A DNA stretch of 64,000 nucleotides. Origin: Candidatus Saccharimonadota bacterium (GTDB lineage: Bacteria > Patescibacteriota > Saccharimonadia > Saccharimonadales > CAIOMD01). Every line of letters begins with the position of its first letter. Within the stretch, counting starts at the first letter, position 1. Under the pieces are notes generated by a model. The model was not told where the DNA came from and ran no database searches. It worked only from the letters and a program-made list of their open reading frames with translations. Below are positions 5,456-28,890 of the stretch, one piece after another. Both the position numbers and the translations under genes were made by a program. The stretch is from assembly GCA_031973215.1 (NCBI GenBank), contig DALYDK010000002.1, positions 63,276-127,275 on the forward strand. The letters are read 5' to 3'.

Positions 5456-7231
5456 TTATAGTGATATTTCAAAACTTTTTAGTTTTTTCTTAGCTGAATC
5501 AGTTTGAGCACTGCTGACCTTTAGTAAGCTTGAATAAATACCTCCGCTTACGGCAAGTTCCGCAGGTGTGCCTATTTCATCTACCTGACCGTTTTTAAGA
5601 GTAATTATTTTGTCTACATGCGCAATGGTACTAAGCCTGTGCGCAATAATAATTGTGGTACGATTTTTCATTAACCTATTTAGAGCTTCTTGAACCATAA
5701 CTTCACTTTTGTTATCTAGGCTACTCGTAGCTTCGTCTAGAACTAATATAGGAGCGTCTTTTAGTAGAGCCCTGGCTATTGCTATTCTCTGTTTTTGGCC
5801 GCCGCTTAGCTTTAGGCCTCTTTCGCCAATTTGGGTGCTATAGCCTTTTTCTAGCTTTTCAATAAATTCTGATGCATTTGCATTTTTTGCTGCCTGTTTT
5901 ATTTTCGCAAGTTGAATATTTTCATCGGCGTAGGCAATATTTTCTTTTATTGTTCCACTAAAAAGTGCTGGCTCTTGGAACACTACTCCAATATTTTGGC
6001 GCAAAGATTTTTTGCTAACACTATTAATGTTCTGCCCATCAATAGATATTTCACCGCCGTTCGCATCGTAAAGCCTTAATAGTAAATTTGTTAGAGTAGT
6101 CTTGCCTTCTCCGCTTTCACCAACCAGTGCAACTTTTTCGCCTGGTTCAATGTTAAAAGATATATCCCTTAGAACCTGTTTTTTATCGTAAGCAAAAGAC
6201 ACATTACTAAATTCTATAGACGGTTTTTTAAATTTTAATTCCTTGGTTGCATCATTATCTTCGTTTTCGTTTTCAGATACAAGCGACATTACTTCGAAAT
6301 AATCCTTGCTATCGGCAATTGCTTTTTGAGTGTTATCTACCAAAAAACTAATTGTAAAAATTGGAATTCTAATTTGCATAGCATATAAAATTAATGCTAC
6401 CGCCTGACCTGGGCTAAATACTCCTTTAGCCCCTTGCACAAAAATAAACAAATAAACCAAAAAGAAAATAACATTAAGTACCAGTCTCCGCTGGACATCT
6501 TTTTTATGCCAATAAGCCGATTGTGGCTTATTAATGACAACAGCTTTTGAAACATATTTATTAAATTTACCAAGTTCGTACTTTTCTTTAATAAAACTCT
6601 TTACAACCTTAATTTGGTTAATTACTTCTGCGAACCTACCACTGGCAATGTCTAAATTTTCATTTTTTTCTTTTTGATACTTTTGCCAAACGTTGCTAGT
6701 TCTAAGAGTCAAAAATATATAAATTGGATACAAACTGCCAAGTAAAACAGCAACCTGCCAGCTATAGTACGCTACAATTCCAAGCGCAATAATTGTAGAA
6801 AAAATAAACTGCAAAAAGTTATTGCTAAGCATTTGCATAAAATTAGTAATTTGGTTAATTGATCTATTTAACCTATTAATAATTTTCCCGGAAAGCTCTG
6901 TATCAAAGTAGCTTTGCGGTAAATCTAAAACTTTTTGGTAATACCGAAAACTTAGCAGCCTAAATAGCTTCATAGAAAGCTGATCACCCCAGTATCCACT
7001 AATGTTGTTGCCAACTGTAGACACTACCTCAATAGCAAATATACCAACAGCCAACCAAACCATATAACTAATGTCGGCATTGGTTCCTTTTTGCATTTCA
7101 TCTATCGCCCAACCACTTAACAATGGCATAAGAAGACCAATTATGCTCAACAAAACGGTAAATATACTTATGGCCAAATAATAGCGCCATAGCTCTTTAC
7201 TGTATTTAACTATTTTCCAAATTTGATTCAT
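5456..7231 (-). CDS. ABC exporter, fused permease/ATPase (MsbA/multidrug type)
   Basis: 591 aa. N-terminal six-TM exporter domain. Walker A GESGEGKTT, signature LSGGQKQR, Walker B ILVLDEATSSLD, H-loop IIIAHR. Confidence 0.9.
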   Translation of the reverse strand: MNQIWKIVKYSKELWRYYLAISIFTVLLSIIGLLMPLLSGWAIDEMQKGTNADISYMVWLAVGIFAIEVVSTVGNNISGYWGDQLSMKLFRLLSFRYYQKVLDLPQSYFDTELSGKIINRLNRSINQITNFMQMLSNNFLQFIFSTIIALGIVAYYSWQVAVLLGSLYPIYIFLTLRTSNVWQKYQKEKNENLDIASGRFAEVINQIKVVKSFIKEKYELGKFNKYVSKAVVINKPQSAYWHKKDVQRRLVLNVIFFLVYLFIFVQGAKGVFSPGQAVALILYAMQIRIPIFTISFLVDNTQKAIADSKDYFEVMSLVSENENEDNDATKELKFKKPSIEFSNVSFAYDKKQVLRDISFNIEPGEKVALVGESGEGKTTLTNLLLRLYDANGGEISIDGQNINSVSKKSLRQNIGVVFQEPALFSGTIKENIAYADENIQLAKIKQAAKNANASEFIEKLEKGYSTQIGERGLKLSGGQKQRIAIARALLKDAPILVLDEATSSLDNKSEVMVQEALNRLMKNRTTIIIAHRLSTIAHVDKIITLKNGQVDEIGTPAELAVSGGIYSSLLKVSSAQTDSAKKKLKSFEISL

Positions 7232-7261
7232 TGTCTTTTTATAAGTATAAAGCTTTTAAAT

Positions 7262-7311
7262 AAAAAAATCGTTCCAGCAAAACACTAAATTGTTTAATGT
7301 TCTATTGGAAC
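7262..7311 (-). terminator. Intrinsic terminator on the minus strand (extended hairpin plus U-run)
   Basis: The minus strand reads GTTCCAatagAACATTAAAcaaTTTAGTGTTttgcTGGAAC followed by GATTTTTTTA. The internal T:G wobble is compatible only with the minus strand; the plus strand would have a C:A mismatch there. Confidence 0.7.
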
Positions 7312-7320
7312 GAACAGGTG

Positions 7321-7945
7321 TTGTTTGTCCGAGTGTCTACGGACTGTCCGCAGAACTCCCAACCGAAATCGGCTAGTGTTCGTTGGCGGGCTGCGCCTGC
7401 ACCCTACTTACCGCAGTGGGGGCACGGATAATGTCCTACTTGGTTTCCCTTGTAGTAAGTCATTTCGCACGCGCCACACTTTGTGGGGGTTGGCGTACGA
7501 AGCCCTTGTTGCTTTCTTCCTTGTAGCCCCATTTTTACTCCTAAAGGTAGATTGGGCCGAAAACGAAAGATTGGGGGTGTGCCCGGAGCATCAGTTACTG
7601 GCCGAAAGGTTACCAGTAAAAGCTCAACGGGCACACCCCACATTTCTGCACCTTCCCCGCGCAGAAATAGAGGAGCAGCAAGCTCCTAGCGAGGACTGGA
7701 GGAATTGCACCTCCTGAATTAAGGGAAGTTTAGTGATGCCTTGGCGGGGGGACCAAGGAATCATCACAACCCATAAAACCGGAGGCTAACCCTCCAGCCC
7801 TCTAGAGTGCTCGGCCGGGTCTCGGCCGACGGGGGAGACAACCTCCTCCGACCGAGCACCTCTCACCCAGGAAAACCCGGGGAGTGGTCGGACAGTGACT
7901 TCGGTTAGACCGAAGTATGCCCGCTTAGTGTGACCAAAAGCAAAC
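7321..7945. ncRNA. Large GC-rich, hairpin-dense structured RNA candidate of unknown class (orientation unresolved, minus favoured by the terminator)
   Basis: The block is visibly GC-enriched inside a 0.9-kb non-coding gap. Many perfect helices are present, for example GGGGTGTGCCCG/CGGGCACACCCC (7574-7585/7628-7639) enclosing TTACTGG/CCAGTAA and CC-GAAA-GG. Others are GTGATGCCTTGG/CCAAGG..CATCAC (7733-7767) and a three-way junction at 7804-7863. Long-range complements are 7343-7350/7889-7896 and 7385-7391/7919-7925. I recognised no RNase P, tmRNA, SRP or intron signatures. Confidence 0.6.
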
Positions 7946-8136
7946 TAATAGCAGGCATTTCTGCCGCAATAGTTTAGCCTTTTCGTCACTTAAAATGCTC
8001 TCTCTAAATAAAGAGCAATTTAAGTAACAAAAAAGTTTACCTAAAGGGCATTAACGCCTAAAAAAATAACAACACCTGTAAATGTGCTTACGCCACCCCT
8101 AAAATACATAGTGGGCATAGCCGTACTATGCTAACA

Positions 8137-8604
8137 CTATTTAGTCTTTGTGTCAACAGTATCTGTGGCTTTATTTTCCGAATTATTTTTATTTATGTTC
8201 CCAGCAATAATTGGAATAAGTAAAATAAGCCCACTAGCAATTGCAAACACTCCGGCAAGCCTTCTAATAATTGTCGTATCAAAAAGCTCAAAGGCTTTTG
8301 CGAACGCATACATAGCCAGTAATAGCAAAACACTTGCAATAATTTTCCCCTGCTTTGGGCTAGAGCCGTTCCATACAAAGGCCCCACAGGCTAACGCAAT
8401 GACACCAATCAACAATGATTCTGCCATAACGCTATCACTTGCGCTTAAAAGCAGAACTCCACCTATGAGCACCGATGCAATTGCACCAATTATTTTTACT
8501 ATTTTATTGAGCGTACCATTGTCTTTCACTACAAAACCCCTTTTACATAAATATAAACTATGGGGATGCTTTTGAATAGTGCTGTAGATTTTCTTATTAA
8601 GCAA
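8137..8604 (-). CDS. Hypothetical integral membrane protein
   Basis: 155-aa ORF with about 4 hydrophobic segments (IIGAIASVLIGGVLLL, LLIGVIALACGAFVW and others). The start is uncertain, because the first Met overlaps the divergent rarA upstream region. Confidence 0.5.
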   Translation of the reverse strand: MLNKKIYSTIQKHPHSLYLCKRGFVVKDNGTLNKIVKIIGAIASVLIGGVLLLSASDSVMAESLLIGVIALACGAFVWNGSSPKQGKIIASVLLLLAMYAFAKAFELFDTTIIRRLAGVFAIASGLILLIPIIAGNINKNNSENKATDTVDTKTK

Positions 8605-11798: not shown

Positions 11799-12905
11799 AT
11801 GAATTTATCTAACATGAGAAATGCTACGGCTTTAGTTTTCCCTAGCATATTTACCAAAAAATTTAAGTTTATTGCTATAAGTATAATTATTGCACTAAGT
11901 AATTTAGCGCCACTAGGATTGCTAGCTAGCAATGCCTCTGCTGCGAATATTGATAACGATCCTGATTGTGATCAGTACTCTGTTATGTATTGTGGTGGTT
12001 TTACCATGAACGAAATTGAAAAGAAGTTCTTAAAAGGCGACGGACAACACAGTGCCAACAACATTCAGAACATTTATAAAGACCTAGGTATTACAGAAAA
12101 AGAAGTTAAAGCTAATGGTTTTGTAAATGGCGTTGTATACCGAAACGGAAATATAGAAGTTAAGAATAAGGTAGTTGCTAAAAATGCAAAAACCTATATT
12201 AGAACAATGGGCAAGGTAGATTCTAGCAAAATGGGATCTGCGCAAACTGCTTTTGTAAAACTTAACAAAGATGGCCAGTTCCAATATGCAATTATGAAGC
12301 CTTGTGGTAACCCTGTTTCTGCTAAAAATATTGTTCCTGAACCAACCCCAACTCCTGCCCCTACCCCTACCCCAACTCCTACGCCTACACCACAACCTCA
12401 GCCTCAGCCTCAACCTGAACCAAAACCTGAGCCAAAGCCAGAACCTCAACCAGTACAAACATTAACCTGTAACTCATTAGTTAAAGTATTCGGCGAAAAT
12501 AGAGAAGTAAGTACTGAAATACAAGCCACAGCTACAAATGGCGCAACAATAACTAAGTATTCAACAGATTTCGGAGATGGCACAATTGTTAGCGGTAAAA
12601 ACGCATCTCATATTTATGCCACTGACGGAACATTTAAAATAGTTGGTACAGTTACAGGAATGGTAAACGGTAAAGAAGTTTCTGTTACAGCAAACGAATG
12701 TCAAACTACTGTTTCGTTCGAAAAATCTACTCCTGTCTGTCCTATAAACCCCGCGCTTCCTGCCAACGACCCTAAGTGCGTAGAAGACAGCATACCTGCT
12801 AGCTTACCTAACACTGGCCCCGGACAAATGCTTGGATTATTTGCCGGAACAAGCATGCTAAGTGCAGTGGCTTACAGATTCTGGTTAAGTAGATTCATGT
12901 CTTAG
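11799..12905 (+). CDS. LPXTG-anchored cell-surface protein with Pro-rich linker and PKD-like domain
   Basis: Signal/TM N-terminus. (PT)n(PQ)n(PEPK)n linker. PKD-like TDFGDGT...HIYATDGTFKIVGTVTG. C-terminal LPNTG, then a hydrophobic stretch and a basic tail (RFWLSRFMS). Confidence 0.85.
   Translation: MNLSNMRNATALVFPSIFTKKFKFIAISIIIALSNLAPLGLLASNASAANIDNDPDCDQYSVMYCGGFTMNEIEKKFLKGDGQHSANNIQNIYKDLGITEKEVKANGFVNGVVYRNGNIEVKNKVVAKNAKTYIRTMGKVDSSKMGSAQTAFVKLNKDGQFQYAIMKPCGNPVSAKNIVPEPTPTPAPTPTPTPTPTPQPQPQPQPEPKPEPKPEPQPVQTLTCNSLVKVFGENREVSTEIQATATNGATITKYSTDFGDGTIVSGKNASHIYATDGTFKIVGTVTGMVNGKEVSVTANECQTTVSFEKSTPVCPINPALPANDPKCVEDSIPASLPNTGPGQMLGLFAGTSMLSAVAYRFWLSRFMS
12338..12452 (+). repeat. Low-complexity coding repeat (Pro-Thr / Pro-Gln / Pro-Glu-Pro-Lys)
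   Basis: Short CCN-ACN / CCN-CAR / CCWGARCCAAAR units encoding PEPTPTPAPTPTPTPTPTPQPQPQPQPEPKPEPKPEPQP. Confidence 0.9.
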
Positions 12906-28715: not shown

Positions 28716-28750
28716 AATCTGCTAAAATAATATTATTAACAATTTAGTAT

Positions 28751-28890
28751 CACGAGTGCGAGGAGAGAACTAGCTCTATGATCCGCCGGCAACCTGCTGA
28801 AAATGCAAGGTGCTCCATCTAGCCATAATTTTTTGGGAAGATAACAAGACAATCCTTTCTAAGCACTCGTGGCAAATTTATGAAAGGATT
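28751..28890 (+). promoter_or_regulatory. SAM-I (S-box) riboswitch with SD-sequestering expression platform
   Basis: P1 is CACGAGTGC/GCACTCGTG (28751-28759/28863-28871). Core GAGGAGAGAACTAGCTCTATGATCCGCCGGCAACC...AAGGTGCT. AATCCTTTC (28851-28859) is complementary to GAAAGGATT (28882-28890), which covers the metK RBS. Confidence 0.8.

Follow-up and report, generated by a model that had tools for sequence, protein, structure and literature searches.

A candidate family of large, modular structured RNAs encoded upstream of an ABC exporter in Saccharibacteria

Genomes of the candidate phyla radiation (CPR) are reduced and leave little room for non-essential sequence. Why should one of them hold a long GC-rich block with no obvious gene? 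We examined this question in a 64,000-nucleotide (nt) stretch of contig DALYDK010000002.1 from a Candidatus Saccharimonadota bacterium (assembly GCA_031973215.1); this whole stretch is referred to as the window. The block lies upstream of an ABC exporter gene. The initial annotation, made from the sequence alone, described positions 7321-7975 as a candidate large structured RNA. To our knowledge, very few bacterial structured RNAs exceed ~500 nt, and no such RNA is known from the CPR. We propose that the block is the core of a free-standing, modular and heavily paired RNA gene of ~860 nt, encoded on the minus strand and belonging to a previously undescribed Saccharibacteria family. The probability that we attach to this reading is about 0.55.

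Extent, strand and ends of the unit

The block stands out by its composition. Across 7300-7999, the GC content of 200-nt windows is 0.52-0.60, and in the flanks it is 0.29-0.39; the peak in 150-nt windows is 0.64. Only one block longer than 150 nt with a GC content of at least 0.52 is found in the 64 kb, at 7276-7976, and the overall value is 0.367. The initial annotation was therefore right that the core is much richer in G+C than its surroundings. Over the 961 nt compared, five independent public assemblies are 100% identical, and a partial sixth contig is 99.5% identical. Because five independent assemblies agree, the sequence is neither an assembly artefact nor a chimera. To assess folding, a 736-nt stretch over the block was compared with dinucleotide-preserving shuffles on each strand. 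The minus strand folds with -329.1 kcal/mol (z = -8.5) and the plus strand with -289.9 kcal/mol (z = -6.2).

Our predicted unit is longer than the block and runs from ~8122 to ~7258 on the minus strand (Table 1). A near-consensus promoter overlaps the stop codon of an upstream open reading frame (ORF) of 155 amino acids (aa), and would start transcription at ~8122. Just 3' of this position is a short hairpin, termed the 5' hairpin. Further on is one strand of a helix of 12 base pairs (bp), the closing helix, whose other strand is located ~740 nt away. The pair is unique in the window, where 0.25 matches are expected by chance. Next are the terminal hairpin and a U-tract, which ends 27 nt from the start codon of the exporter gene (7231). 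By their pattern, the terminal hairpin and U-tract are probably an intrinsic terminator. The hairpin was missed by a simple terminator scan, since it contains bulges and its stem is AU-rich. A covariance model of the 3' module (R2) has a single match in the window, of 84 bits.

Hence, the extent first proposed covers the core of the unit but not its ends. The 5' strand of the closing helix lies outside 7321-7975, and the 3' strand overlaps it only at 7321-7325. The local helices first listed are all perfect reverse complements at their reported positions. Two long-range closures had also been suggested, 7343-7350 with 7889-7896 and 7385-7391 with 7919-7925. Both are present in the window, and the second (GGCGGGC/GCCCGCT) has one wobble, as claimed. 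However, they are mismatched without compensation in four relatives (L082, L114, L110 and L108). The strand had been called ambiguous, with two abutting RNAs as an option. Instead, the promoter, the terminator, the orientation of tRNAs and ORF in homologs, the G-U pairs and the fold energy indicate a single minus-strand RNA. Pairs that are G-U on the minus strand would be A-C on the plus strand.

Homologous units were collected via orthologs of the exporter and with the covariance model of the 3' module. They occur in at least 15 Saccharibacteria lineages, given here as L numbers. The unit of strain L082 is 96-99% identical to that of the window on the flanks of the ORF segment described below. 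Those of L114, L110, L108, L119 and L128 share 70-81% identity with the window unit and can be aligned over their whole length. The others are L120, L129, L122, L130, L018, L019 and L026, and the distant units L010, L011, L014 and L002, where the host exporter is only 63-66% identical. An exact-pattern scan of metagenomes gave 27 stretches, of which L082 and L088 alone are genuine. A further candidate copy, L106, was rejected as a chance match within a coding region.

The arrangement of the ends is shared by the family. All 15 units have an end helix of 10-15 bp that spans 500-820 nt. In 14 of them, a hairpin of 16-21 bp follows at 0 nt; the remaining unit, L026, has an insertion inside this hairpin. 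L119 and L114 have the same promoter in the equivalent position, and it can also be read in L018, L026, L130, L011 and L014. The U-tract follows the terminal hairpin in the window unit, L110, L018, L010 and L011. The terminal hairpins of L010 and L011 are unrelated in sequence to that of the window, and are followed by a U-tract at the equivalent place. Units lie ahead of one of two exporter genes, referred to as ABC1 (593 aa in relatives) and ABC2. Directly upstream of ABC2 or its ortholog, six of seven units have a U-tract, L019 being the exception.

Covariation supports selection for this structure. We aligned the ends module (5' hairpin, closing helix and terminal hairpin) over 11 units. 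In this alignment, 95.2% of cells are paired and 13 pairs are changed on both sides, compared with 4.7 ± 1.3 in shuffles. None of 500 shuffles was as high and slid partners gave at most six pairs. The closing helix is 100% paired in the 11 units. The terminal hairpin, aligned in 10 units, is 93% paired, with 7 of 20 pairs changed on both sides. We also compared eight distinct sequences of the closing helix, a set biased to pairing because the distant strands were located by complementarity; 94.8% of cells are paired (75.4% in shuffles) and 10 of 12 pairs are changed on both sides, a value reached by 0 of 500 shuffles. Compensated versions in distant lineages are GCAGGUGUUAUCAAU / GUUGAUAACACCUGC, GACAGGUGUGAU / AUCACACCUGUC, UGACAGGUAAUGGG / CCUAUUACCUGUCA, AAGGUGUAGAAGUAA / UUACUUCUACACCUU and AACAGACGUA / UACGUCUGUU. 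For the whole unit, an RNAalifold consensus of six close sequences has 92.6% of cells paired and 43 pairs changed on both sides, as opposed to 17.1 ± 2.9 in shuffles and 6-12 in slid controls. Since the sets are small, the sequences related and the consensus taken from the tested alignment, these numbers are support and not probabilities. Compensatory changes in homologs, which the initial annotation had named as a check, are present in many of the helices that it listed.

No known RNA family accounts for the block. With Rfam 15 (4227 families), a scan of the whole window gave no match at gathering threshold in the block. At E ≤ 10 in 7150-8150, the only matches were to microRNA models, and no family is assignable; these spurious sub-threshold matches are due to a long AT-rich hairpin. 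In the L119 and L130 units, nothing matched at E ≤ 5 except the embedded tRNA. Models of GOLLD, ROOL, OLE, raiA and HEARO have no match in the window or in these two units, and those of RNase P, SRP, 6S, group I and II introns, riboswitches and the T-box have none in the unit. ARAGORN detected no tmRNA in the block. There is no similarity to the unit in 50,697 phage records, and three conserved unit patterns are absent from a viral contig collection. The view that the block is a large structured RNA outside known classes therefore stands. We conclude that the unit, as predicted, represents a new Saccharibacteria family of large, modular and structured RNAs, and that its architecture has good comparative support.

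Modules, tRNAs and a mini-ORF within the unit

Between the strands of the closing helix, the unit is a series of modules. The AT-rich hairpin is placed directly after the closing helix and has readable equivalents in L018, L130, L119, L128 and L014. Copy number varies for the GC-rich branched hairpin: the window has one, L120 three, and L119 and L128 none. The domain closed by a 12-bp helix has 95.8% of cells paired, three compensated pairs (in L119 and L128) and G-U pairs on the minus strand only. A covariance model of this domain (R1) finds one copy in the window, scoring 87 bits on the minus strand versus 26 bits on the plus strand. Among the distant units, its sole extra match is a weak one in L026.

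Of the internal motifs, the GGGGAA-loop hairpin is the one conserved most widely across the family. GGGGAAG or GGGGAGG was present exactly once in 11 of the 12 units first checked, always as a hairpin loop and on unrelated stems. The remaining 63 kb of the window contain three occurrences. A looser motif, GGGGA[AG] or GGGGGA, is found at least once in 14 of 15 units. A complementary 6-mer, [U/C]UCCCC, occupies another hairpin loop in 9 of 15 units. In L120, L011 and L014, the G-motif GGGGAG is accompanied by the C-motif CUCCCC, so that A-to-G is seen alongside U-to-C. This suggests a contact between G-rich and C-rich loops, within or between molecules.

Downstream of the ORF are a single-stranded motif and two hairpins. 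The hairpins, one of which is GUCCG...CGGAC (7344-7327), carry compensatory changes. A motif in this segment, CCAACGAACAC (CCAACGAACA; window 7374-7391, L130 2018-2040, L026 2520-2545), is complementary to the 5' strand of the terminal hairpin. Read by eye, it changes along with that strand in L130 and L026. Antiterminator pairing of this motif with the terminal hairpin was considered and rejected, as the duplex is not better than for shuffled intervals (p = 0.02-0.43).

Transfer RNA genes are embedded in several units. They lie in the variable 5' half of the L119, L128, L120 and L019 units and are also found in L018 and L130. In L119, L128 and L120, the tRNA gene is standard-looking and follows the AT-rich hairpin, in place of the variable hairpin region of the window. 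One tRNA scaffold is common to L119, L128, L018 and L130; the copies of L120 and L019 are more divergent. The tRNAs of L018 and L130 have a D-loop insert of ~35 nt. The anticodons differ (UUG, UCG, UGG, AGG, AUG and AAG) and all end in G36. Either the anticodon was remodelled or decoding was lost.

The window lineage has no tRNA in its unit and retains a tRNA-like element. This element comprises the acceptor-like helix, a GGAGG/CCUCC hairpin, a 65-nt arm at the anticodon position with the loop UCCCCCCG and a T-arm-like GGAGG-UGCAAUU-CCUCC; on its 3' side are G and then CUA. Across eight units, three pairs of the acceptor-like helix are changed on both sides. The T-loop is UUCGAWU in relatives and UGCAAUU in the window. 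In L011, the element has an insert of ~120 nt. By model, the window element is not a tRNA: Rfam gave no tRNA match at E ≤ 10 and ARAGORN gave none. Pairing in eight sequences is 93.4% both for a cloverleaf and for an extended rod. The element appears to be tRNA-derived, and the two folds fit equally.

The unit also contains a short gene. According to the initial annotation, the region had no credible coding sequence. However, a 42-aa mini-ORF with an AGGAG Shine-Dalgarno sequence is present at 7532-7404. A Shine-Dalgarno sequence and a Cys-rich ORF of 37-44 aa occupy this place in 12 of the 13 units scanned, 11 of them by scan; the L130 ORF was read by eye because its Shine-Dalgarno sequence escaped the scan. 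Comparisons of three related ORFs gave 4/5/19, 6/6/18 and 4/2/20 differences at codon positions 1/2/3. From these patterns, we conclude that the mini-ORF is a real gene. Triplet periodicity had been named at the outset as evidence against a structured RNA. It is present, in one coding segment of ~130 nt only, and so leaves the RNA interpretation intact. We also rejected a long protein gene and a pseudogene. Stop-free stretches change frame and place among homologs, one of them being reduced from 139 codons to 91 in a strain of 99% identity, and there is no Pfam match. In the homolog comparison, no longer ORF is conserved on either strand of the unit.

We sorted the mini-proteins into at least four types. 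Type A has two CxxCxGxG motifs (L082, L108, L110, L114, L119, L128) and type B a CxxC...CPHC ribbon (window, L018). Types C (L120, L130, L010, L122) and D (L019, L129) have other Cys-rich patterns. A type A profile matches the Cys-rich domain of DnaJ (1EXK, E = 3.4e-5) and, more weakly, anti-TRAP (E = 0.03-0.09) and phage families of unknown function. Type A proteins fall below the Pfam cut-off (26 bits versus 32.7). The window mini-protein has the pattern CGAC...CPHC, equivalent to CxxC-14-CxxC, and no CxxCxGxG motif. It has no Pfam match better than E = 0.01 and does not belong to the DnaJ or anti-TRAP families (PF00684, PF15777). A search of 5.8 billion proteins identified no homolog. AlphaFold2, run on the single sequence, predicts a beta-hairpin (strands 23-28 and 31-36) between the Cys knuckles, with a mean pLDDT of only 66.7.

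The mini-ORF is exchangeable. In L082, the cassette that holds it is replaced by an unrelated, DnaJ-like mini-ORF of type A, and both flanks are 96-99% identical to the window. Similarly, L018 and L130 have the RNA in common and ORFs of different types. In four lineages (L026, L011, L014 and L002), the promoter, closing helix, hairpin-packed body and terminal hairpin are kept and the mini-ORF is absent. Because these four lineages lack it, the RNA scaffold with its closed ends is the conserved entity and the ORF is cargo.

Public gene calls miss the mini-ORF in most assemblies; a 39-aa call is made there only in L110 and L113. Spurious calls of 130-152 aa lie antisense to the RNA (L138 596-988, minus strand; L120 1512-1970, minus strand; window 7325-7717, plus strand). 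Because calls in the unit regions are either erroneous or missing, the mini-protein family cannot be seen in protein databases.

Table 1. Coordinates of the unit's features in the window, and of tRNA genes within homologous units
Feature	Position	Strand	Remarks
Promoter	8156-8128	-	TTGACA, 17-nt spacer, TAGCAT, TG upstream; 10/12 consensus matches
5' hairpin, UAUGCC...GGCGUA	8119-8089	-	Six pairs; 92% of cells paired (11 units); 3 pairs changed on both sides
Closing helix, 5' strand	8079-8068	-	ACAGGUGUUGUU; perfect complement of 7325-7314
Long AT-rich hairpin	8029-7984	-	18 pairs; 97% paired; 2 compensatory pairs
Variable hairpin region	7983-7858	-	Includes stem 7899-7904/7910-7915; poorly alignable among units
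GC-rich branched hairpin	7857-7809	-	GCUCGGUC...GGCCGAGC, loop CUCCCCCGU; outer helix 100% paired
tRNA-like element	7802-7691	-	7-bp acceptor-like helix GAGGGCU/AGUCCUC
Small hairpin	7686-7672	-	GGAGC-UUGCU-GCUCC; 3/5 pairs changed on both sides
GGGGAA-loop hairpin	7668-7642	-	Stem AUUUCUGC/GCAGAAAU, loop GCGGGGAAGGU
Domain closed by 12-bp helix	7639-7574	-	GGGGUGUGCCCG/CGGGCACACCCC; encloses GAGC/GCUC and inner hairpin
Shine-Dalgarno sequence	7542-7538	-	AGGAG; 5 nt before mini-ORF
Mini-ORF, 42 aa	7532-7404	-	ATG start; MGLQGRKQQGLRTPTPTKCGACEMTYYKGNQVGHYPCPHCGK; CxxC...CPHC zinc-ribbon pattern
Swapped cassette	7538-7392	-	ORF and ~12 nt of 3' flank; compared with L082 4139-4281
Post-ORF segment	7403-7326	-	Single-stranded motif GCCCGCCAACGAACAC, invariant in five units, and two hairpins
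Closing helix, 3' strand	7325-7314	-	AACAACACCUGU
Terminal hairpin, 20 bp	7313-7269	-	0 nt after closing helix; -21.2 kcal/mol
U-tract (U7)	7268-7258	-	UUUUUUUAUUU; directly 3' of terminal hairpin
tRNA gene in L119	L119 1486-1561		
tRNA gene in L128	L128 173-246		
tRNA gene in L120	L120 1405-1478		
tRNA gene in L018	L018 520-612		
tRNA gene in L130	L130 1374-1481		
Two tRNA genes in L019	L019 2201-2275; 2386-2464		

Genomic neighbours of the units

In the window, the unit is followed on the minus strand by the genes for the ABC exporter (7231-5456, 591 aa) and an RND transporter (5397-2518). Further downstream are ORFs, and their counterparts in related loci encode proteins with FKBP, glutaredoxin and thioredoxin-reductase domains. 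Upstream of the unit is a gene for a small membrane protein and then MgsA, which is divergent. All of the exporter's closest relatives belong to Candidatus Saccharibacteria. The surroundings of the other units are also chromosomal, with MgsA or PheT upstream and the ABC/RND cluster downstream. Among the genomes that bear a unit, L122 is the only one that does not have it immediately ahead of ABC1 or ABC2. There, a 606-aa gene on the opposite strand lies between the terminal hairpin and ABC1. Because this gene separates them, the L122 unit must be a gene of its own. Conversely, the ABC cluster occurs without a unit in L001, L133 and several relatives where pheT abuts the exporter. Since L001 and L133 have such clusters, the cluster does not need the unit. 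The unit cannot be a housekeeping RNA either, because it is absent from some related genomes. The nearly fixed position at the head of a cluster for ABC/RND efflux, FKBP, glutaredoxin and thioredoxin reductase suggests a link between the RNA and the cluster.

Some further observations concern these loci. The window genome does not have ABC1, which in most relatives separates the RNA unit from the 591-aa exporter (window 7231-7262 compared with L088 100-1963, L108 2178-3959 and L114 989-2770). The gene for the RND transporter that follows the exporter in L110 (5830-9375) is split into several ORFs. One of these weakly matches LAGLIDADG homing endonucleases; an intein, an intron or an insertion could explain this. 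The segment directly upstream of the L130 unit (1-1102) encodes an integrase of phage type and a transposase of the rve family. Elsewhere in the window is a SAM riboswitch (S-box leader; 28744-28847, plus strand; 52.3 bits, gathering threshold 44.4), the only riboswitch present. At 11799-12905 (plus strand), a 368-aa protein is encoded that has a PKD domain and a proline/acidic repeat with a weak match to procyclin-type repeats.

Interpretation and comparison with known systems

What could such an RNA do? We propose that transcription from the near-consensus promoter yields an RNA with its two ends paired in the 12-bp helix, immediately followed by the 20-bp hairpin and U-tract. Enclosed between the closing strands are the AT-rich hairpin, the GC-rich modules, the tRNA-derived element, the GGGGAA-loop hairpin, the 12-bp domain and a translatable mini-ORF. 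Interior modules are gained, lost, duplicated or swapped among lineages. The RNA would accumulate as a stable molecule, with the closing helix stacked on the terminator hairpin so that both ends are shielded. It would then act as a folded chassis for variable cargo: tRNA, tRNA-like modules and, in the window genome, a segment of mRNA for a small, putatively zinc-binding protein. The mini-protein may be a partner of the RNA. Complementary GGGGAA and UCCCCC hairpin loops may help the RNA to fold or to associate, and the tRNA-derived modules may be entry points for RNase P or RNase Z.

Several considerations weigh against this proposal. The ends, stability and processing of the transcript are read from sequence. 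The loop contact rests on co-occurrence of motifs in 9 of 15 units. Our alignments are small (6-11 sequences) and the sequences related, so shuffle controls overstate significance; the whole-unit structure was tested on the very alignment that had served to predict it, and the eight-sequence test of the closing helix has the bias described above. The fast turnover of content might also reflect weak constraint on much of the interior. Finally, a U-tract is present in none of the six units directly upstream of ABC1, and no second promoter was found before ABC1 in L119 or L114. These units may be read through as an operon leader.

Extended to the whole family, such read-through is the basis of the main rival, which we consider rather unlikely. 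Here the unit is a cis-acting leader of the efflux/redox operon, a single strong promoter serves both the RNA and the ABC/RND genes behind it, the closing helix and terminal hairpin are an attenuator or an RNase III-type processing site, and read-through is set by folding, a ligand, temperature or translation of the mini-ORF. The ABC1 loci just mentioned fit this explanation, as does the position of the unit immediately ahead of ABC1 or ABC2 in all genomes but L122. The complementarity of the post-ORF motif to the terminal hairpin is an antiterminator layout, but the duplex performs no better than shuffles. A leader is also hard to reconcile with the opposite-strand gene of L122, and with the ABC clusters of L001 and L133 that have no unit. 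Moreover, ~800 nt with tRNA genes and a conserved protein gene far exceeds known attenuators, and no riboswitch or T-box model matches. Alternatively, the locus could be a small operon that expresses the mini-protein, with or without tRNAs, its GC-rich hairpins being stabilising or processing elements of untranslated regions, or decayed tRNAs, and having no independent function. The tufB and tyrT-tpr operons of E. coli are precedents. The strong Shine-Dalgarno sequence, the purifying selection on the ORF, the true tRNAs of several units and the resemblance of the tRNA-like element to a degenerate tRNA all suit an operon. We nonetheless regard it as distinctly unlikely: four lineages keep the scaffold without the mini-ORF, the window lineage has no tRNA, non-coding helices are compensated at a density similar to that of the ends, and the GGGGAA loop is kept on unrelated stems.

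It is very unlikely that the block is an element acting at the level of DNA, such as a non-autonomous transposon, a relic of integration into a tRNA gene or a segment invertible between the 12-bp repeats. Perfect 12-bp inverted repeats do flank the block, integration at tRNA genes is common, the L130 unit has an integrase and a transposase beside it, and units are present or absent among related genomes and swap a cassette. However, there is one copy per window and locus, and no target-site duplication; the sequences flanking the repeats, …CACATTT and TCGTTCC…, differ. No transposase or recombinase adjoins the window unit. Orientation relative to promoter, terminator, tRNAs and ORF is constant in every unit, and none of five assemblies has the inverted form. 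Furthermore, the repeats keep pairing through G-U in L026 and the internal helices covary, neither of which DNA repeats would require. A retron is not indicated: there are flanking repeats, but the neighbours (ABC exporter and small membrane protein) include no reverse transcriptase. We give as little credence to a very divergent member of a known large family (GOLLD, ROOL, OLE, tmRNA or RNase P). Size, modularity and embedded tRNAs do resemble GOLLD (PMC12286853), and a tRNA-like element with an internal ORF recalls tmRNA. Conversely, the Rfam searches of the window and of two homologs returned only the embedded tRNA as an assignable family, ARAGORN found no tmRNA, phage context is absent, and both the acceptor-like helix and the start of the ORF differ from tmRNA as set out below.

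If the free-standing RNA gene is the correct explanation, the family would have wider interest. Each earlier class of large RNA (OLE, GOLLD, ROOL, raiA) opened new biology. The present family combines traits not seen together elsewhere: tRNAs of one scaffold with differing anticodons, a tRNA mimic and a swapped mini-ORF cassette. A defined promoter, closure and terminator, with comparative support, are concrete targets for transcriptomics, structure probing and cryo-EM. More tentatively, the unit might be the founding member of a class of giant chassis RNAs specific to Saccharibacteria within the CPR. Such RNAs would be end-closed and abundant, carry exchangeable cargo, self-associate via G- and C-rich loops like GOLLD and ROOL assemblies, and form a ribonucleoprotein tied to efflux and redox functions or to the epibiont lifestyle.

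Parts of this design have parallels in other systems. Structured RNA and a small ORF are combined in the dual-function RNAs RNAIII/hld of S. aureus and SgrS/SgrT of E. coli, and tRNA is co-transcribed with mRNA in tRNA operons. Both features recur in our unit. However, the unit is much larger than the dual-function RNAs, its ORF is swappable or absent in some lineages, there is no sequence relation, and base pairing to targets is not known for its structured part. Stable RNAs closed by a 5'-3' helix include 6S RNA, RNase P RNA (P1) and the processing stalks of rRNA. Such a design is expected to protect a long-lived RNA or to provide a double-stranded processing site. Like these RNAs, the unit has a strong promoter, paired ends and a hairpin or terminator immediately after. 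However, it matches none of them in sequence or by model, and its interior is modular and fast-evolving, with no conserved catalytic or binding core. In B. subtilis, rtpA encodes anti-TRAP, a small DnaJ-like zinc-binding protein, behind a structured, tRNA-related T-box leader (PMC10327191). The family likewise places a small DnaJ-like, putatively zinc-binding protein of ~40-53 aa behind a long structured, tRNA-related leader. The differences are that no T-box matches, that the RNA contains tRNA genes as opposed to sensing tRNA, and that the window protein lacks CxxCxGxG.

With tmRNA, the unit shares a tRNA-like element and a short reading frame within one structured RNA that has paired ends. 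In the window, however, the tRNA-like element is internal and has G3-C70 (G1-C, A2-U, G3-C), not the alanine identity pair G3-U70. Translation of the ORF would start at an ATG behind a Shine-Dalgarno sequence of its own, and the product would be a conserved, putative zinc-finger protein, not a degradation tag. The unit is also dispensable in some relatives. By analogy, the closest counterpart is GOLLD, an RNA of >800 nt and of unknown function that has conserved and variable halves and sometimes carries phage tRNAs in a variable linker (PMC12286853). The likeness to giant ornate RNAs raised in the initial annotation is thus a fair one for size, modularity and embedded tRNAs, but does not extend to membership of such a family. 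Unlike GOLLD, the Saccharibacteria units occupy a fixed chromosomal locus with no phage or prophage context and no match to the GOLLD model; their ends are joined by a long-range helix beside a terminator hairpin, and most contain a mini-ORF. What the two have in common is a length of at least ~800 nt, dense structure, a division into conserved and variable parts and, for the L119, L128, L120 and L019 units but not that of the window, tRNAs inside the variable region.

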